A stretch of 64,000 bases of DNA, taken from Candidatus Hydrogenedentota bacterium. Lineage in GTDB: Bacteria; Hydrogenedentota; Hydrogenedentia; Hydrogenedentales; SLHB01. The stretch lies in NCBI GenBank assembly GCA_036769985.1, contig DAIPKA010000019.1, positions 24,843 through 88,842 on the forward strand, given 5' to 3'. The translations under genes and the position numbers were made by a program. Below the pieces are notes generated by a model. It was not told the origin of the DNA. It made no database searches and saw only the letters and a list, made by a program, of their open reading frames with translations. Shown here one piece after another: positions 1-40,623 of this stretch (within the stretch, counting starts at the first letter, position 1; the number at the start of each line of letters is the position of its first letter).

Positions 1-108
1 GGCCCAGATAAACAACACCGGACTCAGAACCACCGCGAGCACGCTCGCCAACAGCGATCCCGCGGCCACCAGCGGCACACCCAACGCCAACGAGAAGTCC
101 TTCTCCAT
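1..108 (-). CDS. partial CDS: first 36 codons of a membrane protein running off the left edge
   Basis: The reverse complement of 1..108 reads ATG at 108..106, then MEKDFSLALGVPLVAAGSLLASVLAVVLSPVLFIWA with no stop. This is one hydrophobic helix. A GGAG-like RBS lies just upstream (reverse complement of 109..125 = gagggagattccggag). The ORF is not in the track because its stop lies outside the window. Confidence 0.4.
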   Translation of the reverse strand, partial: MEKDFSLALGVPLVAAGSLLASVLAVVLSPVLFIWA

Positions 109-363
109 CTCCGGAATCTCCCTCTGAGGTCTTCGCCTCGTTACCCAACCTACTGGCCACGGACATCGTAGAGCACCGGAAGTGCCGTGTCAAGCATCTT
201 CGGGTCCGGCCCGAACAAACCATTGGACAGCACGTGTCCGGACTCGCTAGACTGCCCGGCAGCCCTGTGGGGTCTCCCTTTCTGCGCATGCCGAGGCGCG
301 ATCGGGGCAACCATCGGGCCTTGCACCATAGCCCCAGTCACTCGCAGTCGAGCACGAACGGTG

Positions 364-1116
364 ATGCCCATGAAACGCCTGTCCCTCTTGACAGTCCTGA
401 TGAGCATGGCCTGCCCGGCGTTCGCGCAGGAGATCCGCTGCCCGGGCGCCTACGGCGGCCATCTCCAGGGCGTGGCCGCCGACGCCAACGGGAACATCTA
501 CTGGTCTTTCACCCTTGCCTTGGTGAAAACCGACGCGCAGGGAAAGCTCCTCAAGAAAACCACCGTTCCCGCCCACCATGGCGACCTCTGGACCGACGGC
601 AACACCGTGTACGCGGCGGTCAACCACCCCGCACCCAGCGGTGGCCCCGGCGCAAGAGACTCCTACATCTGCGCCTACAGGACAGACGACCTCTCCCTCC
701 TGTGGAAGAAGGCGATTCCCGAAGTCGTCCACGGCGCGGGCGGCATTGCCATGCGCGACGGCCACTTCTTCGTGGTCAGCGGCCGTCTCTTGAAGAGCCA
801 GGACGAGAATGACATCTACGAGTACGACGCCGACGGCGTCTTCATCAAGCGGCACGTGCTCGAGAGTGGCCACACCCACCTCGGCATCCAAACCATGGCC
901 TACGCCGACGACGCCTGGTGGTTCGGCTGCTACGGCGATCCCCCCGAGACCCTCCGCGCGAGTGAAGACCTCACCTTTCAGCAGAGATTCGCCTACGATT
1001 GCACCCTCGGCATCGCCCCGATCCCAGGCGGCGGCTTCTACATCGGCCGCGGCGACAAGAATGAGGAACGCCAACATACCGGGTGGGTAATCAAGATCGA
1101 CCGGCTACTCCCGTGA
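364..1116 (+). CDS. hypothetical secreted protein
   Basis: ORF 187..1116 trimmed to ATG 364, giving a signal-peptide-like start (MPMKRLSLLTVLMSMACPAFAQE). No family recognised. Repetitive G/D/W/Y-rich segments suggest a beta-rich fold. Confidence 0.55.
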   Translation: MPMKRLSLLTVLMSMACPAFAQEIRCPGAYGGHLQGVAADANGNIYWSFTLALVKTDAQGKLLKKTTVPAHHGDLWTDGNTVYAAVNHPAPSGGPGARDSYICAYRTDDLSLLWKKAIPEVVHGAGGIAMRDGHFFVVSGRLLKSQDENDIYEYDADGVFIKRHVLESGHTHLGIQTMAYADDAWWFGCYGDPPETLRASEDLTFQQRFAYDCTLGIAPIPGGGFYIGRGDKNEERQHTGWVIKIDRLLP

Positions 1117-21022: not shown

Positions 21023-22422
21023 CCGCCCTCGACCCGGCGCTCACCTCCGGCAGCATCACGCGATCCGTCTGGCGCGTGGCTTGGCCCGTCGTCTTGCTCA
21101 ACCTCGTCAACGGCCTCCACGGCCTCGTCGATCACCTCCTCGTCGGCAACTTCGTGCCCAGCGAAACCAACGAAGCCAACGCCGGAATCGGCGTCGCGTG
21201 GCAGCTCTTTCTCGTCATCGTCGTATTCATGGCGTCCCTGTTGCAGGGCATGAACGTGCTCGTCGCCCGCTACACCGGCCGGCAAGACCGCGAGATGGTC
21301 AGCATGATCGTGTACCAGACCTTCCTCGTCTCGGCCATCATCCTCGTTCCCGTCATCGCCCCGCTTGGGTACTTCATGGCCCCGCGCCTGCTCGAGTGGT
21401 TCAACGCAACACCAGGCGTGCAGACCCATGCCCTCCCCTACATGCGCATTCTCTTCACCTGTGGCGCGCCCCTGTTCATCGCGTTCCTCCTTACCGGCGC
21501 CATGCAGTCCTCGGGCAACCCCAAGATTCCCCTGGCCCTCGGCGTGCTCACCACCGCCCTCAACGTCATCCTCAGCGCCTACTTCATCATCGTACTGCAC
21601 CTCGGCGCCGCCGGCGCGGCCCTCGGCACCTGCCTCGCTCCCTGCATCAGCCTCGCCTGTGCGTTCGTCATCATCCTCCGGGGCAAGACCGTCATCGCCC
21701 TGCCCAAACACATGTCGCTCAAACCCGATCTCCGCATCATCGCCGCCGTCGCCCGCATCGGCATCCCCACCGGACTCCAATCCGTGGCCATGAACGTAGG
21801 CGCGGCACTGCTCCTCGGCATCATCGGACGCGTCGAGCACAGCGCCGCCGCCCAAGCCGCCTACACCATCTGCTACACCCAGCTCTTCTCCCTCGTCCTC
21901 TGGACCTCATTCGGCCTCCGCGTCGCCGCCGCCACCGTCATCGGACACAACATCGGCGCCGACAAGATGGCCCGCGGCCGCCGAGGCGTCTACATCGCCG
22001 CGGCCATGGGCCTCGCCGCCGCCTGCGCGCTCGGCATCCTCTACTGGACACTCCCCCGCCCCTTGCTCGCCCTGTTCGATGCCACCGGCCAGGCCATCAC
22101 CCAGTATGGCGTCTCCCTGCTGCGCTACCTCAGCCTGTCCGGCCTCGCCTTTGTCCTCGGCCTCACCTTCACCGGAGGTCTTCAGGGCGCCGGCGACACC
22201 AAGAATCCCATGTACATTGCCATCATCACCCAGATCGGCGTCCTCCTCGGCATCTGCTGGATCGCCATCGCGCTCCACCGACTCTCCACAGACCTCATCT
22301 GGTCCGCCATCCTCGTGAGCCACATCTCGCGATTCCTCCTCACCTACGCCGTCTTCCGCCGAGGGCGATGGGCCACCATCCGCCTCGAGATCGCGCGCAC
22401 GCACACCGCCCCCAACGCGTAA
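21019..22422 (+). CDS. MATE family efflux transporter
   Basis: ORF 20878..22422 trimmed to ATG 21019, which overlaps the rluB stop as ATGA. It has about 12 predicted TM helices and a MATE-like N-terminus (ITRSVWRVAWPVVLLNLVNGLHGLVDHLLVG). Confidence 0.82.
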   Translation: MTALDPALTSGSITRSVWRVAWPVVLLNLVNGLHGLVDHLLVGNFVPSETNEANAGIGVAWQLFLVIVVFMASLLQGMNVLVARYTGRQDREMVSMIVYQTFLVSAIILVPVIAPLGYFMAPRLLEWFNATPGVQTHALPYMRILFTCGAPLFIAFLLTGAMQSSGNPKIPLALGVLTTALNVILSAYFIIVLHLGAAGAALGTCLAPCISLACAFVIILRGKTVIALPKHMSLKPDLRIIAAVARIGIPTGLQSVAMNVGAALLLGIIGRVEHSAAAQAAYTICYTQLFSLVLWTSFGLRVAAATVIGHNIGADKMARGRRGVYIAAAMGLAAACALGILYWTLPRPLLALFDATGQAITQYGVSLLRYLSLSGLAFVLGLTFTGGLQGAGDTKNPMYIAIITQIGVLLGICWIAIALHRLSTDLIWSAILVSHISRFLLTYAVFRRGRWATIRLEIARTHTAPNA

Positions 22423-22525
22423 CGCCCGTCACCCCAATGCTCAATCCGAAACCCATACCAGGCCAGATCCCCCCCAAAATCGAAAACGCCCCAAGGGGGA
22501 TACCCTTGAGGCGCGTGATACTCGA

Positions 22526-22603
22526 TGGTGGGCGACCGCGGGCTCGAACCGCGGACCTCCGCCGTGTGAAGACGGCGCTCTAAACCACCTGAGCTAGTCG
22601 CCC
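22526..22603 (-). tRNA. tRNA-Val (anticodon CAC), CCA encoded
   Basis: The reverse complement is GGGCGACTAGCTCAGGTGGTTTAGAGCGCCGTCTTCACACGGCGGAGGTCCGCGGTTCGAGCCCGCGGTCGCCCACCA. Acceptor stem GGGCGAC/GTCGCCC; D stem GCTC/GAGC; anticodon stem CCGTC/GGCGG; loop TT-CAC-AC; T arm CGCGG-TTCGAGC-CCGCG. Confidence 0.92.
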
Positions 22604-22617
22604 ATCCGCGAACCCAA

Positions 22618-22647
22618 ATCCTACCACAGCCCCGCGCTGGCCGTCAA
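22618..22647 (-). promoter_or_regulatory. promoter candidate for tRNA-Val
   Basis: On the minus strand: TTGACG (22647..22642), an 18-nt spacer, then TAGGAT (22623..22618), ending about 14 nt upstream of tRNA position 1. Confidence 0.4.
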
Positions 22648-22925
22648 ATGCTTCGTGGACACTGAAACGGGGAACGGACCGCCTCCGAGTCTTCGCTTGT
22701 CGCGCCGACGTGTCGCGCCCGTGAAACCTCCCGACGTCAACGAGTGATAGTGCGGCCACTGAGTGACCAATACTCTCCGCTCGCCGAGGTAACTCCGGAA
22801 AGCACGGACAATCCCGTTCTGGGTAACTTCACTGTTCCCATGTTCTCCTTGCATCCGATTACCTTTGTCTGCTATACGTAGAGTCTATTCTGTGCAGCGG
22901 AGTTCTGGTTCCCGAAAGGACCTTG

Positions 22926-23903
22926 ATGGTTGTGCGGGAAGAGCAAGGCAGAGGGGATGTCATATCGCTGGCCCAAGGCCTGAAGCACAAGATCGGTGAC
23001 CAGGAAGTCGTCCTCTTCCTCGGGGCCGGCGTCAACCGGGCCAGCGCCAACCGGGAGAACGGGCCCTCTTGGTCTGACCTGCTTCGCGATGTGCTTGACC
23101 ATGCCGTGTACTACCGGCTCGGCGGGGAGTGGTCTGCGGCGGAGTGCAAGAGGCTATTGGAGTATGTCCAGGACTCACAAAACGCCCTGTCGCACTACGA
23201 CCAAGCAACCCTGGCGAAGAGACTCCTCGGGAGACATTACCTACACGCGATTCGCGAGATGCTTTATAGAAACGTGGAGGTCGCTTACCCCACCGCTGAA
23301 GGCACGGCTCCATTCCTCAGGCTCGTCGCCAACCTCTGCCGTAAAGACCAGGTGAGGGCCGTCGTTACCTACAACTACGACGACTTCCTCGAGTGCCTTC
23401 TTCGCAGCATGGGGGTCCGAGACCCTGTCAGCATATACGGCCGGAGTCCGTCGCACCCCAAATACACAGGACCCCGTGCCCAGATTCCCATATACCATGT
23501 GCACGGCTTCCTGCCGAGAACCGCGCCGTTCGCCGACCTGGACGCCTCCGGTTTTGTCCTCTGCCATGAGGAATACTACCGAAGCCTTCTCGAGCCCTTC
23601 TCCTGGCAGACCGTCCAGCAGTTGTCCTTTCTCCGGTCCTACGTCTGCCTCTATCTCGGAATCTCCTTGCGCGACATGAACATGCTTCGCCTGCTCTGCC
23701 ATTCGGCCGCCTACGCCAGTGGGAGCAGCAAGTACATCCTCTGGTGTGAGAAGGATATCTTCCAATCAGAACCACCTGAGGGAATGAAGGCGCGGCTTAT
23801 CGCCGTTCGCCGCAGCTTGTGTGCCGATCTGTCGCTCGAACTGGTCTGTTGCGGACCCGAGTATGAGGACCTCTACGCAGTGCTGGGCGAACTCGGAAAG
23901 TGA
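22926..23903 (+). CDS. SIR2-like (SIR2_2-type) domain protein, candidate NADase effector
   Basis: ORF 22923..23903 opens with TTG and then ATG at 22926. Motifs in order: VVLFLGAGV, VVTYNYDDFLE (catalytic Asn context), IPIYHVHGFL (catalytic His context), FVLCHEEYY and CLYLGISLRDMNM. No zinc-ribbon Cys pairs of classical sirtuin deacetylases were noticed. Confidence 0.75.
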   Translation: MVVREEQGRGDVISLAQGLKHKIGDQEVVLFLGAGVNRASANRENGPSWSDLLRDVLDHAVYYRLGGEWSAAECKRLLEYVQDSQNALSHYDQATLAKRLLGRHYLHAIREMLYRNVEVAYPTAEGTAPFLRLVANLCRKDQVRAVVTYNYDDFLECLLRSMGVRDPVSIYGRSPSHPKYTGPRAQIPIYHVHGFLPRTAPFADLDASGFVLCHEEYYRSLLEPFSWQTVQQLSFLRSYVCLYLGISLRDMNMLRLLCHSAAYASGSSKYILWCEKDIFQSEPPEGMKARLIAVRRSLCADLSLELVCCGPEYEDLYAVLGELGK

Positions 23904-23987
23904 CCGGATTTCGACTCGGGAATGTCCGTGCACTGCCACCGAAGACGGGCGGGGCCCATTGACGGCCCCGACGAACGTAAAGGAGCG

Positions 23988-25760
23988 ATGATGAAGGAGC
24001 TCGAGACCAAAGTCCGGGGACTTGACGCCGTTCTCAGGAATGGGCTTCGGCTTCCGACGGCCCAGGAGGGCTTGGTACTCCTAATCAAGGGTCCGCCGGG
24101 CAGTGGGAAGACCACGCTGGCGTTGCAGCTTGCTCTGGCCGCGAAGGACTGGGATTGCGAGACGAGAGAAGCTATTGAGATTCGCAGTCACGAGCAGCAC
24201 TCCGACGATATCCGGGCCCTCCTGAAACGACTCGCCACGAGCCCCAACTCCACCGGTTTAGACGTACTGGGACGCGAGGTTCCCGAATCCGACACGGATA
24301 CCGTAGATAATCTCCTCCCGTCCGTCTCGTGGGCCCGCAACCTGGTTGCCAAGCTGAACACCGAAGACCGCGAGTTCCGCCTATTAATGATCGACGGACT
24401 CAACCTCGTCGTGGATTCAGAAAGGCACCTGGTCGACCTCGAAGTCATGGTCTCCGTTCTCCGGCGCAAGTCCACCGTGGGCATTCTCGTGTACGAGCCT
24501 GGGGGAAGTGGCATGGAAACCGTTGATTTCCTGGCCGACCTCGTCATCGAGATGAAAGGCGAGGCCATCAGCGAAGGCCCGAATATCCCGGAGTATTTCC
24601 TCCAGCACATTCGCGTCTGCAAATCGCGGTTTCAGCGCAGCGTCCTTGGCTGGCATCAATACAAGATACGAGAGACAGGCGTTGAGATCTATCCGTCCAT
24701 CCATTACCGGATTCAGGCGGGCGCACCGGAACAGAAACAGAGTCCGACGGTAGCGGCGAACTTCGACGGTTCGAAGCGCTCCGTCGCTGACCATGCGCAG
24801 GAAGCCCAGAAGACTCAATCCAAACAAGGCGGAATCGAAGAAGTCGAGTCGATCATCGGTCACATGCTCGGATCCTACACCTTGGCAGAAGGTAACAGCG
24901 TGACGGTGGTTCTTGGCGCGCGCCGCGCGTGGAAGACCATGTTGACGCTGGACTGGCTGCGGCAGGGCGCAAAGGAAGGTCAGCCGAGCTTGTTGGTCTC
25001 GCTCATGGATGACATACCGACCATCATTGAGCAGCGCGCGCAGCTCTGCAAATATATATGCCCAAGGAATGACGAATCGAAAGGAAACTGCAAGGGCTTG
25101 GACTGCTACAAGAACGTGTTTCCGTTCTACTTCCGCCCAGGCTGTATCGCCCCATGCGAGTTCTTCGACTATCTATGCCGACGAATCGAGGGGAAGGAGA
25201 AGAACGAGACGGGAGAGTATTACGGAAAGATCAAGCGGTTCCTCTTCTGGGACTTGGTCCAGCTCGAGTATCGCTTTCCCCTCCTGTCGTCCGATCCTCT
25301 GTTCCTGCCGGGCCTCATGGACTATCTGAAGTACCAGCGGAGGATTCCGGCCGTGTTCATGGGACCCGCGAGCTCAAGACTGGCGAAGGTCGCCTCCGCC
25401 ATCGCAGACAACGTCATCTTCTCCTGGCAAGACATGACAACCGAGGTCGCTGGCAAGGAATCCACGGAAGGTTGGTGTTTCTATGTGGACCGCGTCGCGG
25501 GCCAGCCGGAACGGGGCCGTCTTCACTTCATCAAGAAGCCCTCGGAAGGTCCCGCGCGCCAGGAGAAACTGGACGGCCAAGCCACCTACGAGACCCTGAT
25601 CGAAACCCATGGGGACAAGAAGGAGCCGCCCTTCGAGCGGGCAAGCGCCTACATCGAGGCCATCCAAGCCCTCCAAGGTCTGCCCCTTGGCATGGCGCCC
25701 AAAGAAGGACAAACCACGGGAACCAAGTCGGCCAGCAAACCCCGCCGTCCGAACTCGTAG
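23988..25760 (+). CDS. tandem KaiC/RecA-like (COG0467-type) ATPase: intact N-terminal domain plus degenerate C-terminal domain
   Basis: ORF 23922..25760; ATG 23988 is preferred because AAGGAG lies 5-10 nt upstream. Domain 1 has RGLDAVLRNGL, Walker A GPPGSGKT, Walker B FRLLMIDGL and the KaiC-like VCKSRFQRSVLGWHQYKIRETGVEIYP. Domain 2 has a degenerate P-loop GARRAWKT, RFLFWDL and a Cys-rich insert. Confidence 0.72.
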   Translation: MMKELETKVRGLDAVLRNGLRLPTAQEGLVLLIKGPPGSGKTTLALQLALAAKDWDCETREAIEIRSHEQHSDDIRALLKRLATSPNSTGLDVLGREVPESDTDTVDNLLPSVSWARNLVAKLNTEDREFRLLMIDGLNLVVDSERHLVDLEVMVSVLRRKSTVGILVYEPGGSGMETVDFLADLVIEMKGEAISEGPNIPEYFLQHIRVCKSRFQRSVLGWHQYKIRETGVEIYPSIHYRIQAGAPEQKQSPTVAANFDGSKRSVADHAQEAQKTQSKQGGIEEVESIIGHMLGSYTLAEGNSVTVVLGARRAWKTMLTLDWLRQGAKEGQPSLLVSLMDDIPTIIEQRAQLCKYICPRNDESKGNCKGLDCYKNVFPFYFRPGCIAPCEFFDYLCRRIEGKEKNETGEYYGKIKRFLFWDLVQLEYRFPLLSSDPLFLPGLMDYLKYQRRIPAVFMGPASSRLAKVASAIADNVIFSWQDMTTEVAGKESTEGWCFYVDRVAGQPERGRLHFIKKPSEGPARQEKLDGQATYETLIETHGDKKEPPFERASAYIEAIQALQGLPLGMAPKEGQTTGTKSASKPRRPNS

Positions 25761-25818
25761 GGAGGACATCAGAAGACCAACGCTCACCGGAGAAACGCCG
25801 GTCGCTCGATACGTCAGC

Positions 25819-28800
25819 CTACCCGTCGATGGCCTTGCGGACTTCTTGGGCCATAACGTCGGCGCGGAACGGTTTCTGGATGAACGAGCGCGCGCCGGAG
25901 CGCAGCAGCGCCTGAGCCGAGGGCCCGAGTTCGTAGCCGCTACAGATGATCACTTGCATGTCCGGACGCGCCTGCATCAACAAGGGATAGGCCTGGGCGC
26001 CCCCCATCACCGGCATGCCCATGTCGAGCACGCTCAGGTGAATCGGGCCGTCGTAGGTCTTGGCGATGTCCACGGCCTCTTGGCCGTCGTGCGCCAGCAG
26101 CACCTTGTATCCGAATCCCTCAAGCATCTGCCGCGTCACGGACAACACGACTTCCTCGTCGTCGATCACAAGGATGGTCTCGTCGCCTCGCGGCAGGGCA
26201 CTCTTCTTGCTCGGTTCGCTGTCGGCCACGGCCTCGGGCGCCTGCTGCACGGCGGGCAAATACACCTTGAACGCGGTGCCTCGGCCCGGCTCGCTGTACA
26301 CCGAGATGTGGCCGTTGTGATTCTTCACGATGCCGTACACGGCCGCCAGGCCCAGGCCGCGCCCCTGGAACTTCGTCGTGAAGAACGGCTCGAAGACCTT
26401 GGCCCGCACGTCCGGCGTCATGCCTTTGCCGGTATCCTCGACGGCGAGGTAGGCGTACGATCCGGTCTTGAGGCCGGGATGCATCCGGGCGAAGTCCTCG
26501 TCCACCTCGAGATTGCGCGTGACAATCGTGATCGTGCCTTGGCCCTCGATGGCCTCGACGGCGTTGATCGAGAGGTTCATGACCACCTGGTTGATCTGGC
26601 TGGGATCGGCGCGCACCGGCCACAACGCGCGCTCGAAGTCGCGCTCGATGCGGATGTTGGGCGGAAACGACCGCTCTTCGAGCTGGAGCGTTTCGAGAAT
26701 GCTCTCATTGAGGTTGAGGATCCTTGGCTGGTACTTGCCGCCCCGAGCGAAGGCGAGCAGCTTCTGGGCCAGTTCGCCGGCCTGCTGCGCGGACTTCGCG
26801 ATGCTGTTGAGCATCCGCTTGATGTCGGGCCGCTCCGGGAGCTTCATCTCGAGCAGTTCCGCGTTGCCCAGCACGCCCACCATCAGGTTGTTGAAGTCGT
26901 GCGCGATACCGCCGGCCAGCGTAGCCGTGGCCTCCATCCGCGACGCCGTACGCACGGCGCTCTCGGCCTGCTTCTGCTCGGTAATATCGCGCATGGTGCC
27001 CACGATGGAGTCGAGCCGGCCCTCTTCGCCCCACACCAGCGTGGCGCTCTCCGAGAACCAGCGATACTCACCGTTTTTGTGCTTGATGCGGTACTCGATG
27101 AGGTGAGGCACATTGTCGCCGGGCGACGACGCGCTCTGTCCTTTCCGATAGGCGAGCACGGCGGCGATATCGTCGGGATGGATCCGCTCGTCGATATCGT
27201 CAATGGTCATAGCGAGTAGCTCGCCGGCCGAGAAGCCGAGCAAGTCCCCGACACACGGACTCACGTACTCATAGGTCCGGGTGGCGACTTTCTGCCGGAA
27301 AGCGATATCGCGCGAATTCTCGAGAATCGTCCGAAGGTTCTCCTGCGTGACGCGCAACGCCTCCTCGGCCTCTCGACGTTTCGAGATATCCCGGCTCACG
27401 CCTACCAGACCAATCACCTCGCCCGACTGGTCGCGCAACGGGACTTTCAGCGCATGCACCCATCGCGACCGACCGGACTTGTACCCGAGTCGCTCCTCAC
27501 GATCTAGGGGCGGGCCCCCGGAGCGCATCAGTTCCTGCTCCGCTTCGAAGAGCCGTCGGGCATGGGACGGCTCAAAGAAATCGAAATCCGTCCGGCCCAC
27601 GATGTCCCGTTCGTCTTCGACGTGAAGCGCACGCAGATGGGCGCGGTTCGTCGTAATGAACCGGCTCGCGCGATCCTTGAGATAGATGGCGTCCGGAACG
27701 CTGTCCATGACGGTACGCAACAGCAGGCGCTCCTTTTCGAGCGCCTGCTCGGCCCGCTTGTGCTCGGTGATATCCGTCAACACCGCGAAACTGCCCCGGA
27801 AGACGCCGTTCTCGTCGAACAGCGGCGCCGGGGACATGATGGTCGAGAACGTGGTGCCATCGCGACGCGTGAACGTGATCTCATAGGGGGTCCGGTCGCG
27901 TTCCTTTCGCTTGGCCACTTCGCGATAGAAGATCTCGCGCGCCTCGCCGTCGATCAGCTCGATGGTGCGGCGGCCCAGCAGTTCCTCGCGACTGTACCCG
28001 AACATCCGGCACAGGCGATCATTCACCTGGATGAGCACCCCGTTCTCGTCCTGCACGCCCAAGCCGTCGTTCATCGCCTCGACAAGCATCCGGTGCCGCT
28101 CTTCGCTGATCTCCAGCGCCTTGAGCGCCCGCCGATGCTCCGTAATCTCGGTCAGGCAGTTGCGCATCCCGACGATCTGCCCGCCTTGGTAGATGGGGGA
28201 CGAGTTGACGACCACCTGGGCCTCGGACCCATCCTTGCGAAGCATGCGATACTCGGCGCTGAGCCGTTCCCCGCTCATCACCCGTAGCGCCCGCTCGGCC
28301 GCCCGAGCCCGGTCGTCGGGATGGATGAGGTCGAAAAGGCGAACCATGCCCTTGAGATCGTCTTCCGAGTACCCGGAAGTCTCGATGCCGAATTTGTTGA
28401 TATAGGTCAACCGCATGCTGAGGTCGACCTCGCACACCAAGCTCGGGAGCAGTTCCGTCATCTCACGGAATCGCTCCTCGCTCCGCGCCAGGGCTTCCTC
28501 GGTCCGCCGTTGCTCGGTAACATCGCGGGCAACGCCCAATACACCAAACTCGTGCCCCTCGCGGTCGCGGATCACGCTCGCCCGAAGCGCGATAACGACC
28601 GTCTCCTCACCCCGGGGCACTCGCACATCGCCTTGCCACGAGCCCTGCTCGAGCGTGGAGCGGACAACCTGATCGACGGTGGCCTGATTCTCGTTGGCCA
28701 GGAAGGACCCGAGGGGCTCGCCTTCGAGCCGGTCGGCGGATACGCCCAGCAATTCCTCGATGGAGGGCGTGGCATACAGGACTCGACCCTCCCGGTTCAC

Positions 28801-28908
28801 CGCAATCGCCCAGTCGGCAAGGCTATCCAGGATCGCCAAACGGAGTGCGTCAGGAACCGCATGTCCGGCCGCGTTCGGACGGCTTCGCGCTGTGCGCCCT
28901 TGGTCCAT
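25819..28908 (-). CDS. multi-PAS hybrid sensor histidine kinase with C-terminal receiver
   Basis: ORF 25819..28977; the start is uncertain (ATG 28908 or 28977). It has several PAS/PAC repeats, the H-box GGIAHDFNNLM, HATPase motifs (NLSINAVEA, GRGLGLA) and a receiver (ILVIDDE ... LSVLDMGMP). Confidence 0.88.
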   Translation of the reverse strand: MDQGRTARSRPNAAGHAVPDALRLAILDSLADWAIAVNREGRVLYATPSIEELLGVSADRLEGEPLGSFLANENQATVDQVVRSTLEQGSWQGDVRVPRGEETVVIALRASVIRDREGHEFGVLGVARDVTEQRRTEEALARSEERFREMTELLPSLVCEVDLSMRLTYINKFGIETSGYSEDDLKGMVRLFDLIHPDDRARAAERALRVMSGERLSAEYRMLRKDGSEAQVVVNSSPIYQGGQIVGMRNCLTEITEHRRALKALEISEERHRMLVEAMNDGLGVQDENGVLIQVNDRLCRMFGYSREELLGRRTIELIDGEAREIFYREVAKRKERDRTPYEITFTRRDGTTFSTIMSPAPLFDENGVFRGSFAVLTDITEHKRAEQALEKERLLLRTVMDSVPDAIYLKDRASRFITTNRAHLRALHVEDERDIVGRTDFDFFEPSHARRLFEAEQELMRSGGPPLDREERLGYKSGRSRWVHALKVPLRDQSGEVIGLVGVSRDISKRREAEEALRVTQENLRTILENSRDIAFRQKVATRTYEYVSPCVGDLLGFSAGELLAMTIDDIDERIHPDDIAAVLAYRKGQSASSPGDNVPHLIEYRIKHKNGEYRWFSESATLVWGEEGRLDSIVGTMRDITEQKQAESAVRTASRMEATATLAGGIAHDFNNLMVGVLGNAELLEMKLPERPDIKRMLNSIAKSAQQAGELAQKLLAFARGGKYQPRILNLNESILETLQLEERSFPPNIRIERDFERALWPVRADPSQINQVVMNLSINAVEAIEGQGTITIVTRNLEVDEDFARMHPGLKTGSYAYLAVEDTGKGMTPDVRAKVFEPFFTTKFQGRGLGLAAVYGIVKNHNGHISVYSEPGRGTAFKVYLPAVQQAPEAVADSEPSKKSALPRGDETILVIDDEEVVLSVTRQMLEGFGYKVLLAHDGQEAVDIAKTYDGPIHLSVLDMGMPVMGGAQAYPLLMQARPDMQVIICSGYELGPSAQALLRSGARSFIQKPFRADVMAQEVRKAIDG

Positions 28909-29242
28909 CGTCGATCCCTCGCTGGGAAGACACGGACCCGAAGCACGACATTGCCCTACTGTCACCGTGCCTTCCATTCATAATACTGCCCGCTACACCG
29001 GGAACTTGTCAATGATTTCCTGGAATGAACCTTCACTGGACGAGTTCTGATCACTTTTCACAGGCCCGACGCTCCGCGAACCATCCGCTTCAAACGGTGT
29101 CTCAATAAGCGGACTTGTTGAGACCGAGAAAAGTTGAAGCCAGCCCAAGGACAAGACAAGGGTTCCTGCGCCGGAGTCTGCGTCCAACATACCAACACCC
29201 GCGCGGCACCGGCCAAGGCCCGCGCCTAGAAGGGAGAGAACC

Positions 29243-34121: not shown

Positions 34122-37100
34122 ATGCCGAGCATCCAGCTCTTCTGCGGGACCGGGCGCTCCGCGCGTTCCCGTCACGTCGACGCCATCGTTCGTGCGCATT
34201 GGGGACGGTCATGGCTCATCGTACCGACGCGCCAGTATGCGCAACGGCGAACGGAGCAGCTCCTCCTCGAGGGTGATCTGCCGGGCGCCTGGGGCCGGCC
34301 CGTCCTCGCCTTCGACGATTTCGTGGTGTCCCTGTTGGCCGCCGAGGGCGTCGAGCCCAAGCGCGTCGGCGAGGCCGAGCGGCGATTCCTCTTCGAGCGG
34401 GTCGTCGTCGGCCTTCGTCGGAAGGGTCGGCTAGGCTCATTGGGCCCGGTTACGGCCACGGCCGGTTTCATCTCGCACCTGATGCGCACCGTCGCACAAC
34501 TGAAGCAGGCCGCCATCGAACCCAACGCGTTTCGCACACGGCTGGCGCGGCGGGCGACACAGTCGCCGGTCGACGACGCCGTGGCGGAAGTCTACGAGGC
34601 GTATCAGGCGGCCCTTCATGGACGCGGCCTGTACGATGTGCCGGGGCTATTTTGGCAGGCCGACCTCATCGCGCAACAAGGCCGGCCGGAAGTCCTGGCG
34701 GGTGCCGACACCCTCTGTCTGGACGGCTTCGACGACTTCACACCGTCCGAGTTCCGGCTCGTCTGCTCGCTCGCCCGCCACGTCGAACGGATGGCGTTTG
34801 GCCTGAACTACGACCCGGATCCGAACCGGCGCGACCTCTTCGAGATTGCCGCACGAACAGCCCATGCAATTCAGCGTCACTTCGATGTCGAGCCCCTCGT
34901 GCTCGAGGAACCGCCCGCCGAGACCTTCGTCGAGTTCGCCGCCGGCAACGTGTTTTGGCGTAACCGGCCCAAGGCCGTCGACGGCCTCGAACGCAACATC
35001 GAGATCGCGGCCTGTACCGACCCCGTCCAGGAGATCGAGGCCGTCGGCCGCCGCGTCAAACGCCTGCTCGTGGTCGACGGTGTTCCGGCCTCGGAGATCG
35101 CGGTGGTATTCCGCGATCTGGGAGCAGCCGCCGGTATCCTGGAACACGTGTTTGCCGAGTTCGGCGTTCCTATTCACATTATTCATAGTCCCAACGTACT
35201 CTCGAGCGCGTTGGCCGGTTTCGTGCTTGATGTGCTCGATGCCGCCGGATCGTGGTCCCGCGACGCCGTCGTCAGCATCCTGACCCGATCCTGGTTCAGG
35301 TTTGGCGCCGGGCCGTCTCGAGCGCACGCGGCCAAGTACTCACGGCTAGCGCGCGTCGCGCAGGTGATCTCCGGCCGTGATGAGTGGCGATCGCGCGTCG
35401 AGGCCCTGCGCGACCGGTTGGCAAAGGGGAGCGGCGAAGACATCGAGGGCCTTGTGGCGCAAATGCCGGACGCCGTTGAGGCCGTGGAAGCATTGCTCGA
35501 GGACATCCAGCGTTTTGATCGGCTGCTGGCCTGGGTTCCGGAAGCGGCCACGCCGGGCGCATTCGCCGTCGCGATCGAGCGTCTCGTGACGGACGCACAA
35601 CTGGCCTCGGCGGTGCAGACGCACGCGGTCGCTGAGGTGCGCAGGAATGAAGAAGCCGCGTTGCGAGCGGTTCGCGCCCTACTCGCCGCCATGGCGGCCT
35701 GGGAAGACCCCAACGCCGAGCACGAGCCGCGGGCCCAGTTCGCCGAACGCCTGCGGCGGGCCTGCGCCGACACCCCCTTCGCCAGGCCACGCGAGGCGGG
35801 CGGGGTGGCGTGCCTGGACGCCTTGGCTATTCGGCATCTGCGGTTCGACCACGTGTTCTTCTGCGGCGTCAACGAGGGAGAGGTTCCCCGACCGCCGGTG
35901 ACCAATGCGCTATACTCCGAGGATGACCTCGACGAATTGCGCCGAATTGGCATCGACATCGAAGGCAAACGTCTGCACAGCGCCCGAGAGGCCCTTCTTT
36001 TCCATCACGTACTAAGCGGCGCGCGCAAGCGGCTATGCGTGACATGGCACACCCTGTCGAGCCAAGGGCAGCCGAAGCTGGCCAGCCCGTACATCGACGA
36101 CCTGGTTGAGCTGTTTCCCGGTTCTCCCATCCACAGCGATGCGCCGCGTCCGGGCGCCTTCGTACCGCACACCGAGGAGGTGGCTTCGTGGCGCGACGCC
36201 GCCAACGCGGCCTGCGGCGGGTCGGCGCCGGCGTTGCGTGCGGCTTTGGGCGAATCCCTCGCGGCCATCGAGGCTGGGGCCGCCATCGAAACGGCACGGC
36301 ACGGCGTACGCCCCTTCGACGAGTACGATGGTGTCCTGGCCGATGCCGCGCTGCGGGCGGAGCTGTCGCAGCGATTCGGCGTCGACCACGTCTTCAGCGT
36401 GGGTCAGATCGAGACGTATCTTGATTGTCCGTTCCGGTTTCTCGTGGCGCGTGTGTTGGGCCTCGACGAGACCGAAACGCCCTCCGAGGAACTCGATCCG
36501 CGCCTACGCGGGGCGATCCTGCATGGGGTGCTCGAGTCGTTTCACCGGCACTTCCTAGGCATACCGGCTGCGGCGATTCCGGAAAACGAGGCACGCGAGT
36601 GCCTGTCGGCCCTGCTCGAGAGGCAATTCGGGCCGACGTCGCGTCGGAATCGCGACGCCGGGCCGGGCGTATTGGCCGTCGAGTGTGCGGCGATGGCGGT
36701 GCAGTTGGAGCGGTACCTGAACATCGAGCGCGATGCCCAGGACTTCACGTGGAAACCCGCGCATTTCGAGGTGTCTTTCGGCCGCACGCACAGTAGCTCG
36801 ACGGATCCGCTGAACCGTAATGAGCCCTTCGAGCTGACCATGGATGGCGAGGCGGTGCGGTTCGCAGGGCGCATCGACCGCGTGGATTGCGCCGGGAACC
36901 GCGCGCGGATCATCGACTACAAGACTTCCGCGGTGCCGAAGACGGCCGACATCCGCGAGGGCCGGGCGGTGCAGTTGATCGTATACGCATGGGCGCTTGA
37001 GGGCCTTCTCCTGCCGGAGGCGGTGTGCGCCGAGGCGGCCTATGTGGCGGTGGGCCGCGAGAGGGGCAAGGACGAGCTGAGACGCGAAGGCAACAAGCCA

Positions 37101-37286
37101 GAATGGCCCGAGCGTGAGGCCATGGCCAGGGCATCCATCACTCGAGCCGTGGCCGGGATTCGCGCCGGGCGTTTCCCGCCGACGCCCCACAAGACGTCGG
37201 AATCGTGTGGCTACTGTGCCGCGCGCCGCATCTGCCGCCACGAAGCGGGCCGCATCGAGCGCAAGGAGGGCGTCACCGGTGAGTAG
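34122..37286 (+). CDS. addB: AddB-type helicase-nuclease subunit B (PD-(D/E)XK nuclease with Fe-S cluster Cys motif)
   Basis: 1054 aa, starting 1 nt after the XPB stop. The C-terminal nuclease has YLDCPFRFLV, GRIDRVD and IIDYKTS, plus the Fe-S cysteines SCGYCAARRIC (C-x2-C-x5-C). The N-terminal P-loop position is degenerate (GTGRSARS). Confidence 0.8.
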   Translation: MPSIQLFCGTGRSARSRHVDAIVRAHWGRSWLIVPTRQYAQRRTEQLLLEGDLPGAWGRPVLAFDDFVVSLLAAEGVEPKRVGEAERRFLFERVVVGLRRKGRLGSLGPVTATAGFISHLMRTVAQLKQAAIEPNAFRTRLARRATQSPVDDAVAEVYEAYQAALHGRGLYDVPGLFWQADLIAQQGRPEVLAGADTLCLDGFDDFTPSEFRLVCSLARHVERMAFGLNYDPDPNRRDLFEIAARTAHAIQRHFDVEPLVLEEPPAETFVEFAAGNVFWRNRPKAVDGLERNIEIAACTDPVQEIEAVGRRVKRLLVVDGVPASEIAVVFRDLGAAAGILEHVFAEFGVPIHIIHSPNVLSSALAGFVLDVLDAAGSWSRDAVVSILTRSWFRFGAGPSRAHAAKYSRLARVAQVISGRDEWRSRVEALRDRLAKGSGEDIEGLVAQMPDAVEAVEALLEDIQRFDRLLAWVPEAATPGAFAVAIERLVTDAQLASAVQTHAVAEVRRNEEAALRAVRALLAAMAAWEDPNAEHEPRAQFAERLRRACADTPFARPREAGGVACLDALAIRHLRFDHVFFCGVNEGEVPRPPVTNALYSEDDLDELRRIGIDIEGKRLHSAREALLFHHVLSGARKRLCVTWHTLSSQGQPKLASPYIDDLVELFPGSPIHSDAPRPGAFVPHTEEVASWRDAANAACGGSAPALRAALGESLAAIEAGAAIETARHGVRPFDEYDGVLADAALRAELSQRFGVDHVFSVGQIETYLDCPFRFLVARVLGLDETETPSEELDPRLRGAILHGVLESFHRHFLGIPAAAIPENEARECLSALLERQFGPTSRRNRDAGPGVLAVECAAMAVQLERYLNIERDAQDFTWKPAHFEVSFGRTHSSSTDPLNRNEPFELTMDGEAVRFAGRIDRVDCAGNRARIIDYKTSAVPKTADIREGRAVQLIVYAWALEGLLLPEAVCAEAAYVAVGRERGKDELRREGNKPEWPEREAMARASITRAVAGIRAGRFPPTPHKTSESCGYCAARRICRHEAGRIERKEGVTGE

Positions 37287-40200
37287 AACGCCCGAGCAAC
37301 AGCAGGCCGTGGTCGCCGTATCCAAGTACCTGTGCGTCGACGCCGGAGCCGGGTCAGGCAAGACGCGCGTGCTCGTCGAACGCATTGTCCATTTGCTCGA
37401 GACTCGCGCGGCGCGCCTCGAGGAGATCGTCGCTATTACCTTTACGGAAAAGGCGGCCGCCGAAATGAAGATGCGGCTGCGCAGGGCGTTTCACGAGAAG
37501 GCGCCGGCATACGATCCGGAGGCCATGAGCTTCTGGCGCGATCTCGAACGGCGCGTCGAGACGGCACGCGTGTCGACCATTCACTCGTTTTGCGCGGCAC
37601 TGCTCCGCGAAAACGCCATACGGATAGGCCTGGATCCCGACTTCGCCATCCTGGCCGACGCAGAAGGCAAGCTCTTCCGGAGCGATACGGTGTCGGAGGC
37701 CCTTCACGGCCTCATCGAGGCGGGCAACGCGGCGGCGCGGCGCGCGGCCGTCGAGTTCCGCATGGTCGGTCTGGCGCGACAGATCGAACGCTGCCTGGAC
37801 CACGCGGCCGTTATGGCGGACATCGTCGTCGAGCACCCCGTAACCAATCCGGAGGCGCTGCAGCAGCACTGGGCGCAACTGGCCCGGGCGGACTACGAGG
37901 ACCGGCTCTCGACGCTGGCGTCTGCGCCAAGCATCCGTTGGTTCCGGAACAGGCTGGCTGAATTCGACGGGCAGTGTAGAAAACCCGCGGATCCGCGCGA
38001 GATCCTGCGACGGGAAATGCTGGCCTCGCTGGATGCAATCCTCGTGGGCGCCGGCGTGGACGAGATCGAGACGCACCTCGAACGAATTCTCGATCTGAGC
38101 ACGCGAGGAACGCGGAGCGACCACTGGGATTCGCCCGCCGACGCAGAGGCACTGAAGAAAGTCGAGGAACGTTTCAAGGACTTCTGCAAGGAGCACCGGC
38201 CCTTGATCATGGATGGCGACATCGAGCGGGCCGCAGCCGAGGTCACATGCGCATTCTACGCCACGTATGCCGAGGTCGCCTCGGTCTTCGCCAAGGCCAA
38301 AGCGGCGCGCACATCCATGGATTTCGACGACCTCATCGCCGGCGCGCTCGACATGCTGCGGGAACGCGAGGACGTGCGACGGCGCGTCGCCGGCGGCATC
38401 AAGCACCTCCTCATCGACGAGTTCCAGGACACGAACTCGCCGCAACTCGAGATCGCGCAGTGGCTGGCACGCGAGGAAGAGGGGCCAAACCTGTTCATCG
38501 TCGGCGACGCCAAGCAGTCGATCTACGACTTCCGCGGCGCCGAGGTCGAGCTCTTCCAACAGGAAAAGGACTGCGCCGAGGCACTCATCACGCTCGATAG
38601 GAACTTCCGTTCCGTGCCGGAAGTCATGGCGTTTGTGAACGATTTCTTCGCGGCCTCGGACATGCTTGCGGCAGTCGAAGGCAACTACCATCCGCTACGC
38701 GCGCACCGACCGGCATCGAACGCGCCACGCATCGAGTTCCTCATTCCCGAGGTCGATGAAGGCCGCAACGCCGAAGCGTACCGAAAACGGGAAGCGGCAC
38801 TGATCGCGGATCGCATTTCGGCGTTCTGCGACGCCGCGGGGCCGGTTCGAGTCCAGGATCCCGTGTCGGGCGAGGATCGCCCGCCGGCCTTCGGCGATGT
38901 GGCCCTCCTCTTTCGGGCCATGGGCGATGTGCACCTCTACGAGGAGGCGCTCCGCCGCAGCGGCATTCCCTATCAAATCGAGGCCGGCCAAGGCTTCTAC
39001 GAACGTCAAGAAGTGATTGATCTCCGGAATCTCCTCGGTGTCGTCTTGGACGCCTGGGACGAAACAGCGCTGGCCGGTTTCCTTCGAGGGCCGATAGCGG
39101 GCCTTTCCGACGATGGCCTCGTCCGGCTCTGTGCGCACGGCGGCCTGGTGGGCGCTTTCGAGTCAGACGGCGCGCCCGAAGGTCTTGATGATGTTCAGGT
39201 GCATCGTTTGGAACGGGCACGCGCCCTGGTGGCCGACCTGCGCGCGCACGTCGACCAGTCGGTGCCGGCGTTCCTGCGCTACATGCTCGCCGCGACGGGT
39301 TTCGAGGCGATCCTGCTCAGCCAATTTCTTGGCGTGCAGAAGGCCGCGAACGTGCGCAAGACCTTGGACTTGGCCGAGGACTTCTCGCGAACGCGGCCAC
39401 CGAGTCTAGGGGCATTCGCGCGGTATCTCGAGGAAATGGCCCGCTATCCCGACGTGCGCGAGGGCGAATCCGCCGCCGCAATCCAGGGTCAAGGCGCGGT
39501 GACGCTGATGACGATTCACAAGGCGAAAGGCCTCGAGTTCCCTGTAGTCTTCGTGCCGGATTGTTCGAGAGGACGCGGCAGCGAACACGACGGGCCCGTC
39601 GTGTTCGACCGACGGCTCGGTTTGGCGGCACGCGTGACGAGTCGCGCCGGCGCCTCGGCATCGCCGGTGGTGTTTGACGCCATCACGCGCGCGAAGAAGG
39701 CCAGGGACGAGGCCGAGCATGCGCGCGTGCTGTACGTGGCCATGACGCGCGCGAGAGACTGGCTCTTCCTTTCCGGCGCGCCGGAAACCCAGCGGAAGCA
39801 AGGCGCATCCTGGCTCGACGCGCTCGATGCATGCTACGGCGTGGTGGGCATGGCGGATGGCGAGCGTGTGTCCGGCGCCGGCTGGGAAGCCGTCGTGCGC
39901 CGGCGTCCGGCCACGGCACGCGTGGCCAGCTACGACCGCACCGGAGCGAGCGCCGCCGATACGGCGCCAGATCTCGCGCGACAGGTGAGCCCGGTCAGGA
40001 CTGCGGCCATCGCGCGACCTACCGTGGCCGTGACGCGGCTGTTGGACGCTACGGGTTTCGCCGAGGATCGTGACGAGGCCACAGGGCCCAAACGGCTCGT
40101 GGATCCGCTCACGCGCGGCACGCTCGTGCACGCGCTGTTCGAGCGCTGGTCGCCGACGGTCGATGTGGCCGCCCTGGCGGCCGCGCTGGCGACGCGCGAG

Positions 40201-40623
40201 TGTCCGGGGGCCGATGAGTCCGAGGTCTTCGCGGCGGATATCGAGGCGGTGGCGGCCCGATTCGCCGATTCGGCCGTGGCCACGCGCCTCACCCAGGATG
40301 CCGGCGCGATGCGAGAAGCGCCCTTCCTGTTGCGGTTGGGGAACTACCTCGTGAGTGGGACAATCGATGTACTCTTCTCCGACGGGACCATCATCGACTA
40401 CAAGACGGGCCTTCGCCACGCCGAGCGTGAGGCGCGCTACGAGGCACAGCTTTGCTTGTACGCGGCCGCCGTGCGGGCGCTGCTGAAACGCGACGTGCCC
40501 GAGGCGTGTCTTTACTACGCGGATACGGGAGCCCTATGCCGCGTAGACGTGACCGAAGCAAAGACCGCGGCCATTTTGCATCGCGCCGAAACAATGCTCG
40601 AGAAGAATCATGGCCGATCCTAG
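37279..40623 (+). CDS. addA: AddA-type UvrD-like helicase / PD-(D/E)XK nuclease subunit A
   Basis: ORF 37114..40623 trimmed to GTG 37279, which overlaps the addB stop by 8 nt. Motifs: VDAGAGSGKT, HLLIDEFQDTN, GDAKQSIYDFRGA, TIHKAKGLEF and YVAMTRAR. The C-terminal nuclease has GTIDVLFSDGTIIDYKTG. Confidence 0.85.
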   Translation: MSRTPEQQQAVVAVSKYLCVDAGAGSGKTRVLVERIVHLLETRAARLEEIVAITFTEKAAAEMKMRLRRAFHEKAPAYDPEAMSFWRDLERRVETARVSTIHSFCAALLRENAIRIGLDPDFAILADAEGKLFRSDTVSEALHGLIEAGNAAARRAAVEFRMVGLARQIERCLDHAAVMADIVVEHPVTNPEALQQHWAQLARADYEDRLSTLASAPSIRWFRNRLAEFDGQCRKPADPREILRREMLASLDAILVGAGVDEIETHLERILDLSTRGTRSDHWDSPADAEALKKVEERFKDFCKEHRPLIMDGDIERAAAEVTCAFYATYAEVASVFAKAKAARTSMDFDDLIAGALDMLREREDVRRRVAGGIKHLLIDEFQDTNSPQLEIAQWLAREEEGPNLFIVGDAKQSIYDFRGAEVELFQQEKDCAEALITLDRNFRSVPEVMAFVNDFFAASDMLAAVEGNYHPLRAHRPASNAPRIEFLIPEVDEGRNAEAYRKREAALIADRISAFCDAAGPVRVQDPVSGEDRPPAFGDVALLFRAMGDVHLYEEALRRSGIPYQIEAGQGFYERQEVIDLRNLLGVVLDAWDETALAGFLRGPIAGLSDDGLVRLCAHGGLVGAFESDGAPEGLDDVQVHRLERARALVADLRAHVDQSVPAFLRYMLAATGFEAILLSQFLGVQKAANVRKTLDLAEDFSRTRPPSLGAFARYLEEMARYPDVREGESAAAIQGQGAVTLMTIHKAKGLEFPVVFVPDCSRGRGSEHDGPVVFDRRLGLAARVTSRAGASASPVVFDAITRAKKARDEAEHARVLYVAMTRARDWLFLSGAPETQRKQGASWLDALDACYGVVGMADGERVSGAGWEAVVRRRPATARVASYDRTGASAADTAPDLARQVSPVRTAAIARPTVAVTRLLDATGFAEDRDEATGPKRLVDPLTRGTLVHALFERWSPTVDVAALAAALATRECPGADESEVFAADIEAVAARFADSAVATRLTQDAGAMREAPFLLRLGNYLVSGTIDVLFSDGTIIDYKTGLRHAEREARYEAQLCLYAAAVRALLKRDVPEACLYYADTGALCRVDVTEAKTAAILHRAETMLEKNHGRS

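Follow-up and report, generated by a model that had tools for sequence, protein, structure and literature searches.

What purpose does a SIR2 protein serve when it is encoded directly upstream of a KaiC-like ATPase? We met this question at a two-gene locus of a Candidatus Hydrogenedentota bacterium (GenBank assembly GCA_036769985.1, contig DAIPKA010000019.1), within a stretch of 64,000 nucleotides that was analysed at its full length and that we call the window. An earlier note, written from the letters of this stretch, had proposed that the pair is a defence cassette acting through depletion of nicotinamide adenine dinucleotide (NAD+). Our analysis leads us to consider it probable that the two genes form an NAD+-depleting, abortive-infection-type anti-phage (anti-mobile genetic element) system, with a ring ATPase of the KaiC type in the place that HerA has in SIR2-HerA. 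The two genes are located as follows (aa, amino acids; NADase, NAD+-consuming enzyme):

22926..23903, plus strand (start 22923 or 22926, giving 326 or 325 aa): gene 1, a stand-alone immune-type SIR2 protein (SIR2_2 / "SIRim"), the predicted NADase effector
23988..25760, plus strand: gene 2, a tandem KaiC/RecA-like ATPase of 590 aa

Gene 1 is recognised by the Pfam family SIR2_2 (PF13289) with 40.2 bits at a cutoff of 24.5, and the five motifs that the earlier note had picked out in it (VVLFLGAGV, TYNYDDFLE, IYHVHGFL, VLCHEEYY and YLGISLRDMNM) are all present in the translation. The key codons of the SIR2 signature are:

23022-23030, plus strand: G33-A34-G35
23373-23375, plus strand: N150
23379-23381, plus strand: D152
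23496-23498, plus strand: H191
23502-23504, plus strand: H193

For the conservation analysis we aligned 34 proteins of the close homologue set (alignment A2), many of which are encoded on one contig with a KaiC-like gene. Y149, D152, H191, H193, G194, W227, Q232, G245, S247, D250 and R255 are invariant in this alignment, and G33, A34 and G35 of the GAG loop as well as N150 are conserved in at least 90% of the members. The AlphaFold2 model of the protein (predicted local distance difference test, pLDDT, 87.7; predicted template modelling score 0.89) was compared with the PDB using Foldseek. All of the best 50 matches are Avs5, KomBC/KomC, SIR2-HerA, ThsA, DSR2, SPARSA or human FAM118B structures, for example Avs5 (9jap, E = 3.6e-10) and SIR2-HerA (8wld, E = 1.1e-9), and not one housekeeping sirtuin is found among them, in agreement with the placement that the earlier note had given the protein. 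In the sequence search of the PDB, FAM118B (9r3e, E = 0.006, residues 26-279) is the sole relevant match, since the second one, at E = 0.66, is not meaningful; the fold of FAM118B is matched with a template modelling (TM) score of 0.62-0.67. Human FAM118B belongs to a vertebrate, filament-forming type of protein that has no ATPase partner, and the likeness says no more than that gene 1 is a member of the immune SIR2 clade. FAM118B has been assigned to this "SIRim" clade, whose bacterial members are reported to be 12-fold enriched near antiphage systems compared with classical sirtuins (bioRxiv 10.1101/2024.09.18.613514). The 325-aa protein consists of the SIR2 domain alone, without a SLOG, STAND, prokaryotic Argonaute (pAgo) or DSR-type sensor region. 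Gene 1 hence encodes an immune-clade SIR2 protein with intact NAD+-binding and catalytic residues, which we predict to be an NADase effector that stays inactive until it is triggered.

The neighbouring gene 2 encodes two RecA-like domains, whose limits (in residues) and motifs are:

residues ~1-245, plus strand: domain 1
residues ~246-300, plus strand: low-confidence linker
residues ~300-520, plus strand: domain 2, followed by a C-terminal tail
24090..24113, plus strand: Walker A GPPGSGKT of domain 1, residues 35-42, with K41, invariant in all 30 aligned members
24192-24197, plus strand: E69-Q70 of domain 1, invariant in 30 aligned members
24393-24398, plus strand: Walker B-like D136-G137 of domain 1, invariant in the same 30
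24621-24671, plus strand: K212/R214/Q216 and the LGWHQYKI block of domain 1, invariant in the same 30
24915..24938, plus strand: pseudo-P-loop G310-A-R312-R-A-W315-K316-T317 of domain 2, defined by family conservation

Pfam KaiC (PF06745) matches this protein in three stretches with 49.2 bits (cutoff 26.6), so that both domain calls of the earlier note hold above their cutoffs. The motifs GPPGSGKT, FRLLMIDGL and CKSRFQ..HQYKIRETGVEIYP were likewise recovered from the translation. With the AlphaFold2 model (pLDDT 78.7), Foldseek returned KaiC for all of the best 50 matches, at E values of about 1e-22 and over 530-580 aligned columns; the two domains are oriented differently to each other than in KaiC, which explains the low TM-score (~0.34). 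The alignment of 30 family members (alignment A1) shows that G35, G38, G40, K41, T43, E69-Q70, D136-G137, K212/R214/Q216 and G221-W-H-Q-Y-K226 are conserved in domain 1. We take the block K212-K226 to be the counterpart of the KLRGT.H...Y motif of KaiC. Gene 2 is thus a two-domain KaiC-type ATPase of the RecA superfamily, and no motif required to hydrolyse ATP is missing from its first domain. In domain 1, the segment between the EQ motif and Walker B holds an insert whose length varies across the family from 63 to 374 aa; such variability would be expected of a recognition surface, which is how we interpret the insert.

The second domain had been called degenerate. This is right for its P-loop, which is non-canonical, but the domain as such has not decayed and is strongly conserved. 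A canonical Walker A is present only in domain 1 of all family members, whereas the true KaiC proteins in our set (P0166 and P0167) have two. The pseudo-P-loop follows the family pattern G310-[PA]-R312-x-x-[WFL]-K316-T317, in which G310, R312 and K316 are invariant, T317 is threonine in 29 of 30 members, and the glycine that would precede the lysine is replaced in every member by the bulky hydrophobic W, F or L. Further conserved positions are S338/N342, C373, P384-G385-C386, E391, W421-D422, A473-D474-N475 and D501-R502, and overall the conservation of domain 2 equals or exceeds that of domain 1. When the two domains were aligned with hhalign, the P-loops came into register at E = 0.044, which is not significant; the sequences thus do not prove that domain 2 arose from domain 1 by duplication, and the KaiC-like nature of domain 2 rests on the fold match together with the NCBIfam model KaiC_arch_3, which matches residues 325-374 of the 612-aa open reading frame (ORF), that is domain 2, at E = 4.7e-8.

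Two smaller features of gene 2 may be recorded here. A 20-nt direct repeat (24106-24125 and 24931-24950, 80% identical, 825 nt apart) coincides with the codons for KTTLAL of the domain 1 Walker A and for KTMLTL of the domain 2 pseudo-P-loop, and may be a faint DNA-level trace of a domain duplication or a product of chance. In the region 24915-25150 of the window (residues ~310-386), four cysteines of domain 2, C354 and C358 (~70% conserved) and C373 and C386 (at least 90%), surround a low-confidence loop at residues 360-367; that they form a metal site is a speculative thought.

Do the two genes belong together? Using hidden Markov models of both families and precomputed gene calls, we found the SIR2 gene immediately upstream of the ATPase gene, in the same orientation, at all 27 independent close-family loci for which the upstream region is present (17 from genomes, 9 further ones from metagenomes, and the window); two more loci end at a contig edge. 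The question raised in the earlier note, whether homologous pairs are neighbours elsewhere, is thereby answered with yes. The two genes are separated by -14 to +19 nt in the other loci, the 84-87 nt of the window being the largest distance. An all-versus-all ORF comparison of 24 loci gave only the SIR2 and ATPase genes as common elements, and the flanking genes are unrelated from locus to locus. A conserved third gene was considered and rejected, since the ORFs that recur are either shadows on the antisense strand of the ATPase gene or sensor-kinase domains of a generic kind. Across 21 loci, the pairwise identities of the SIR2 and ATPase proteins are correlated (Mantel r = 0.74, reached by 0 of 2000 permutations), a value that fits joint inheritance, although the common phylogeny of the organisms could account for part of it.

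The family is large and scattered. A word-indexed search yielded 47 ATPase and 171 SIR2 homologues, with at least 10 pairs matched by source contig, and an exhaustive profile search gave 551 family representatives (clusters at 50% identity, E <= 1e-30). Scanning one genome per GTDB species, we obtained 22 loci, every one of them in a metagenome-assembled genome (MAG). In total about 13 phyla are represented, namely Planctomycetota, Nitrospirota, Omnitrophota, Myxococcota, Bacillota, Calditrichota, Hydrogenedentota, Proteobacteria, Verrucomicrobiota, Cloacimonadota, Bacteroidota, Actinomycetota and Chloroflexota. All close-family carriers found are MAGs or metagenomes, with no isolate and no plasmid among them. 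A Planctomycetaceae MAG is among the sources of the nearest relatives of the window proteins (52% and 45% identity), while another Hydrogenedentes genome holds a copy that is only 43% identical and stands in a different context. The patchy distribution, with the closest relatives in other phyla, points towards horizontal spread.

Within the wider family, the long ATPases owe their extra length mostly to an insert within domain 1. In one long protein (P0293, 1364 aa), a KaiC of more canonical type (Pfam 136 bits) is preceded at the N-terminus by a fused calcineurin-like metallophosphoesterase, which shows that KaiC-fold ATPases combine with other enzymatic domains. In a Draconibacterium MAG from a long-read assembly (L017, 7729-11330), the SIR2 gene is split into two pieces and the KaiC-like gene into three, across frames; this pair is either a pseudogene or carries indel errors of long reads. 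Three Bacteroidota loci (L021, 9047-12463; L023, 7854-12449; L025, 105-3278) encode a distant KaiC-like protein with 24-27% identity, and directly downstream of it a homologous protein of 370-430 aa with about seven transmembrane segments. Their domain 1 Walker A is degenerate where it was read (GEKGTSKS in L021, GESGTYRT in L023). No SIR2 gene stands upstream in L021 and L023, and the upstream region of L025 ends at the contig edge. These loci may represent a sister module in which the effector has been swapped; such an exchange of effectors, with the regulatory chassis kept, is a typical trait of defence systems. A DUF3825 protein is also encoded upstream in L023.

Is the pair then a known system? 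Like SIR2-HerA (Nezha), it is a two-gene operon in which a stand-alone SIR2_2 protein (~320-400 aa) lies directly upstream of a ring-forming ATPase of the ASCE (additional strand catalytic E)/RecA-like type, and the SIR2 folds are similar (Foldseek 8wld). SIR2-HerA is marked by a SIR2 dodecamer that docks on an ATPase hexamer. Once bound, the HerA ring acts allosterically on the SIR2 protein, whose active site opens and whose NADase becomes active (PMC11514289, PMC11472057), and the complex combines NADase with ATPase, helicase and nuclease activities (PMC11472057). The proposed logic of our pair would be alike, with a ring ATPase that allosterically activates an NADase (PMC11514289). Unlike HerA, however, gene 2 has neither DUF87 nor FtsK-HerA among its top Pfam matches, which are KaiC, AAA_25 and generic P-loop families, and it gave no match to the PADLOC HerA models at E <= 1; a genuine HerA encoded at one of the metagenomic loci (L029, see below) is annotated as DUF87/FtsK. 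It further differs in its tandem two-domain architecture with a pseudo-P-loop in the second domain. The SIR2 proteins are also distinct, as the window protein scores 11.6 bits on the PADLOC model PDLC04087 and the SIR2 of the SIR2-HerA pair in L029 448.8 bits on PDLC04088; only 1-3 of the 34 SIR2 family members reach E <= 1e-3 with the PADLOC "SIR2" models. We find the comparison with SIR2-HerA a reasonable one, and the SIR2 and KaiC-like pair is most likely an undescribed relative of that system. We class the control of an immune SIR2 NADase by a ring ATPase as known, and the recruitment of the regulator from a different ASCE lineage as new.

With the KaiC clock protein and the archaeal KaiC-like ATPases, gene 2 shares the tandem RecA-like CI/CII architecture and, in domain 1, the Walker A, the catalytic Glu, the Walker B and the KxR...H..YxI motif. 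In contrast to these, domain 2 has no canonical Walker A in any of the family members studied here, the identity amounts to only 12-18%, kaiA or kaiB neighbours are missing, and the close-family ATPase is always partnered with a SIR2 protein. A clock function was rejected on the basis of the single P-loop, the missing kaiB and the score of 25 bits against the NCBIfam KaiC model PRK09302, the cutoff of which is 408.

The other immune SIR2 systems (Thoeris ThsA, DSR1/DSR2, Avs5, KomC and SPARSA) have in common with gene 1 the immune SIR2 fold and the N/H catalytic signature. The SIR2 portion of the PADLOC ThsA models is matched by 22 of the 34 members (best E = 1.3e-14; window protein E = 0.008). 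Thoeris was nevertheless rejected, as this match covers the SIR2 part only, SLOG/STALD is lacking and no TIR/ThsB gene is adjacent. DSR and Avs5 were dismissed for want of a fused sensor in gene 1 (STAND or a large C-terminal domain), and Kongming on its architecture, with no KomA/B gene adjacent. Unlike SPARSA, gene 1 has no pAgo domain and no Argonaute gene lies next to it. On the ATPase side, 21 of 30 members weakly match PADLOC mad8 (best E = 4.7e-8; window protein E = 4e-4). The pair is not the eight-gene system MADS (mad1-8), as the likeness to mad8 extends over no more than ~29 residues at the P-loop, and neither other mad genes nor a methyltransferase are found near the window pair. 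PADLOC v2 recognises the pair as none of its named systems and gives only matches of P-loop length or of partial domains, and full-text searches of the literature, beyond which lie the supplementary tables of large prediction studies, found no paper that links SIR2 with KaiC in defence, KaiC with an NADase, or PF13289 with PF06745. The earlier note, which knew of no described SIR2 system with this partner, is in line with both results.

How might such a pair work? We propose that it is a self-contained, horizontally mobile operon. By analogy with KaiC, the ATPase would assemble into a stacked double hexameric ring, in which the domain 1 ring would hydrolyse ATP and the domain 2 ring, with its pseudo-nucleotide site, would serve as a scaffold or bind a ligand. 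The variable insert could form a sensor surface that helps to recognise an infection cue, for which phage DNA or a replication intermediate held in the ring may be considered. In analogy to SIR2-HerA, the ATPase may then allosterically free ring-docked SIR2 protomers from autoinhibition, and the resulting depletion of NAD+ would leave the infected cell unable to support phage replication. The KaiC-like ATPase would in this scheme play the role of HerA without being a HerA homologue at the family level. A more far-reaching proposal is that we are looking at an undescribed two-gene anti-phage family of uncultured phyla, in which a KaiC-type ATPase with an active first ring, a pseudo-site in the second and the insert as sensor replaces HerA, and whose chassis is re-used with an effector of about seven transmembrane segments in Bacteroidota; this we put forward tentatively and rate somewhat below an even chance. 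Were it so, KaiC-fold ATPases would make up a new class of immune sensors or regulators.

The surroundings of the pair give defence a mixed testimony, and the island link that the earlier note had named as a check holds only for a part of the loci. Canonical defence genes are neighbours in three of the 12 Pfam-annotated loci. McrB-McrC lies directly 5' of the pair in L066. In L064, the pair is placed between an SNF2 helicase with KilA-N on one side and an N6_N4 methyltransferase with a ResIII helicase on the other (type III-like restriction-modification), with EcoEI_R_C and HD-CE genes further on. The third, L029 (1234-12802; JGI 3300063127), holds a TIR-WD40 protein of 1108 aa, a canonical SIR2-HerA pair, an unannotated gene of 233 aa and after these the SIR2 and KaiC-like pair, whose ATPase has 933 aa and a large insert; KilA-N follows downstream. 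This locus is a compact defence island in which two distinct systems of SIR2 plus ring ATPase adjoin each other. Two tyrosine recombinases follow the pair in L002, the one locus of the 12 with integrases. These neighbourhoods are suggestive of an enrichment of defence genes near the pair. At L064 17560-19935, downstream of the pair and the restriction-modification genes, the HD-CE gene is followed by one for a protein of 1259 aa with two KaiC matches and faint SLFN-helicase and AAA_14 matches, a further large gene with KaiC domains in defence surroundings.

Several observations weigh against the proposed defence function. The association with defence genes is weak, as only three of the 12 Pfam-annotated loci have such neighbours, and the eight loci other than these and L002 show no recognisable defence context. 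Among 94 neighbours in 14 GTDB loci, only a handful match PADLOC models at 1e-5, with one protein each (PDC-S15, a CARF protein, PDC-M43B, PDC-M58B, PDC-S01, a homing endonuclease, a subtilase and an SspA/DndA-like protein), of which some, such as the SspA/DndA-like and subtilase matches, are generic; by Pfam content, the neighbours in these 14 loci are mainly housekeeping genes. The same is true of the window, where the housekeeping arrangement around the pair is repeated on 11 contigs, and neither att-like or direct repeats nor an integrase were found at 22300-26100. Viral carriers were not detected in IMG/VR by pattern search and tblastn, INPHARED gave one weak partial match only (25% coverage, 30% identity), and PLSDB contained no plasmid carriers. 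A fusion of SIR2 and ATPase was not present among the long family members examined, and a part of the co-divergence may, as said, be phylogenetic. Finally, we infer the NADase activity, the oligomeric state, the contact between SIR2 and ATPase, the trigger and the protection against phages.

These observations bring a regulatory module outside defence into play. KaiC-like proteins are hubs of signal transduction or timing, and a KaiC-like signalling ATPase might cooperate with a SIR2 enzyme that modifies proteins (by deacylation or ADP-ribosylation) or that senses NAD+, in a stress or metabolic response. The housekeeping or signalling neighbours at most loci, the window included, would suit such a module, and so would the sensor kinase, GAF or PAS genes near six loci, the stability of the window locus on its 11 contigs, the lack of mobile-element hallmarks at the window site and the conservation of domain 2 in the manner of a ligand-binding regulatory domain. 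However, by structure and sequence the SIR2 protein groups only with immune NADases and not with deacylase sirtuins; the patchy occurrence across phyla with unrelated flanks is unlike a core pathway; neither a conserved third partner or substrate gene nor a kaiA/kaiB-like neighbour accompanies the pair; some copies sit inside clear defence islands; and sensor kinases are so abundant in these genomes that their proximity may be chance. On balance we regard a regulatory function as unlikely.

Even if the pair defends the cell, its chemistry could be a different one. The SIR2 protein might ADP-ribosylate a phage or host target, make a signalling nucleotide or add a nuclease activity, or the main antiviral activity might come from the ATPase acting on phage DNA as a translocase or helicase. 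Precedents are SIR2-HerA, for which NADase, nuclease, ATPase and helicase activities are reported in combination (PMC11472057), and the FAM118-type sirtuins, which process NAD non-canonically and form filaments (PMC12700824); domain 1 of the ATPase moreover keeps all hydrolysis motifs of a RecA-family motor. Yet the nearest solved relatives (ThsA, DSR2, Avs5, KomC and SIR2-HerA) are described as NAD+-consuming, the active-site residues for NAD+ cleavage are conserved, and no nuclease domain is detectable with Pfam in either protein, which makes another chemistry quite unlikely in our judgement. We finally asked if the pair is already listed under a different name, be it in a recent DefenseFinder release or among the predictions of a large machine-learning study. 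The weak mad8 matches of the ATPases, the ThsA matches of their SIR2 partners and the position of supplementary tables outside a full-text search would allow for this. We nonetheless hold it to be very unlikely, given that PADLOC v2, which scores a real SIR2-HerA SIR2 with 449 bits, gives partial matches only for our proteins, that the full-text search on SIR2, KaiC and NADase returned nothing relevant, and that the carriers, all of them MAGs or metagenomes, are material rarely sampled by published screens.

If the preferred reading, an NAD+-depleting defence system under a KaiC-type ring, is true, KaiC-fold double-ring ATPases would be a new class of regulators of immune SIR2 NADases, in addition to the known controlling partners HerA, SLOG, STAND, pAgo and the DSR sensor domains. 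The design in which a ring ATPase switches on an NADase would then have arisen at least two times, from different ASCE lineages. The pseudo-P-loop ring and the insert of 63-374 aa are concrete, mutable candidates for the sensing of infection. Its carriers appear to be limited to MAGs from little-studied phyla (Hydrogenedentota, Planctomycetota, Omnitrophota, Cloacimonadota and others), and the family would therefore stand for immune diversity that escapes screens based on isolates. The practical value would be modest: one further NAD+-depletion system, the switch of which is unusual and might lend itself to engineering.

The immediate surroundings of the two genes in the window are the following:

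22526-22603, minus strand: tRNA-Val(CAC), from ARAGORN; Rfam RF00005, 57 bits
22604..22925, plus strand: 322-nt non-coding leader between tRNA-Val and gene 1, presumed to hold the promoter
23922 and 23991, plus strand: alternative ATG starts of gene 2, giving 612 aa (first ATG) and 589 aa
23980..23985, plus strand: AAGGAG Shine-Dalgarno-like site, read from the sequence, preceding the ATG-ATG at 23988/23991
25819-28977, minus strand: PAS/HisKA/HATPase_c sensor kinase, convergent to the pair

Both borders that had been described for the pair, the tRNA-Val gene and the convergent kinase gene, were confirmed. In public gene calls for the identical locus, gene 1 has 325 aa and gene 2 starts at 23988 (590 aa) or 23991 (589 aa). 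The distance between the two genes depends on the start of gene 2 and amounts to 84-87 nt, or to 18 nt from the ATG at 23922, in accordance with the 19-85 nt given before. The leader contains no sigma-70-like match on the plus strand and no Rfam match, hence no sign of a structured RNA; it gives no comparative or covariation information because its three available copies (two from other samples) are identical. The flanks of the pair comprise DAHP synthase, ScpB, a pseudouridine synthase, a MATE transporter, the tRNA, the PAS kinase and a VIT-VWA protein.

Insertion of the pair at the tRNA-Val gene was considered and rejected. Islands usually integrate at the side of a tRNA gene that is opposite its 5' side; the pair lies on the 5' side of this minus-strand gene, and repeats and an integrase are lacking. 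The tRNA gene has promoter-like and terminator-like sites of its own. A comparison of presence and absence at the same chromosomal site was uninformative: the metagenome scan anchored on the adjacent MATE gene gave 32 loci with 44-58% identity (and one 71% fragment), and the other flanking genes were not shared.

That the pair is richer in AT than its neighbours proved correct in direction. The GC contents of the two genes (0.595 and 0.586) are among the lowest of the 39 window ORFs (mean 0.626, standard deviation 0.023), and the GC content at third codon positions is ~0.74 compared with ~0.80 in typical genes. The shift is real but modest, and other 1-kb bins of the window have an equally low GC content.

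In 6 of 24 loci, the pair has a sensor kinase, GAF or PAS gene at a distance of less than 10 kb, namely in the window (25819-28977), L003 (2055-3488), L031 (15386-16672), L008, L009 and L012; such genes are abundant in these genomes, and their closeness to the pair is probably due to chance. An Rfam search of the whole window (1-64000) at the gathering threshold was empty, the tRNA-Val having been missed through the speed filters. With permissive filters on 22300-24100 it was recovered at the 57 bits listed above, the gathering score being 29. Elsewhere in the window, two adjacent co-directional ORFs of ~1050 aa each occupy 34122-37283 and 37465-40620.

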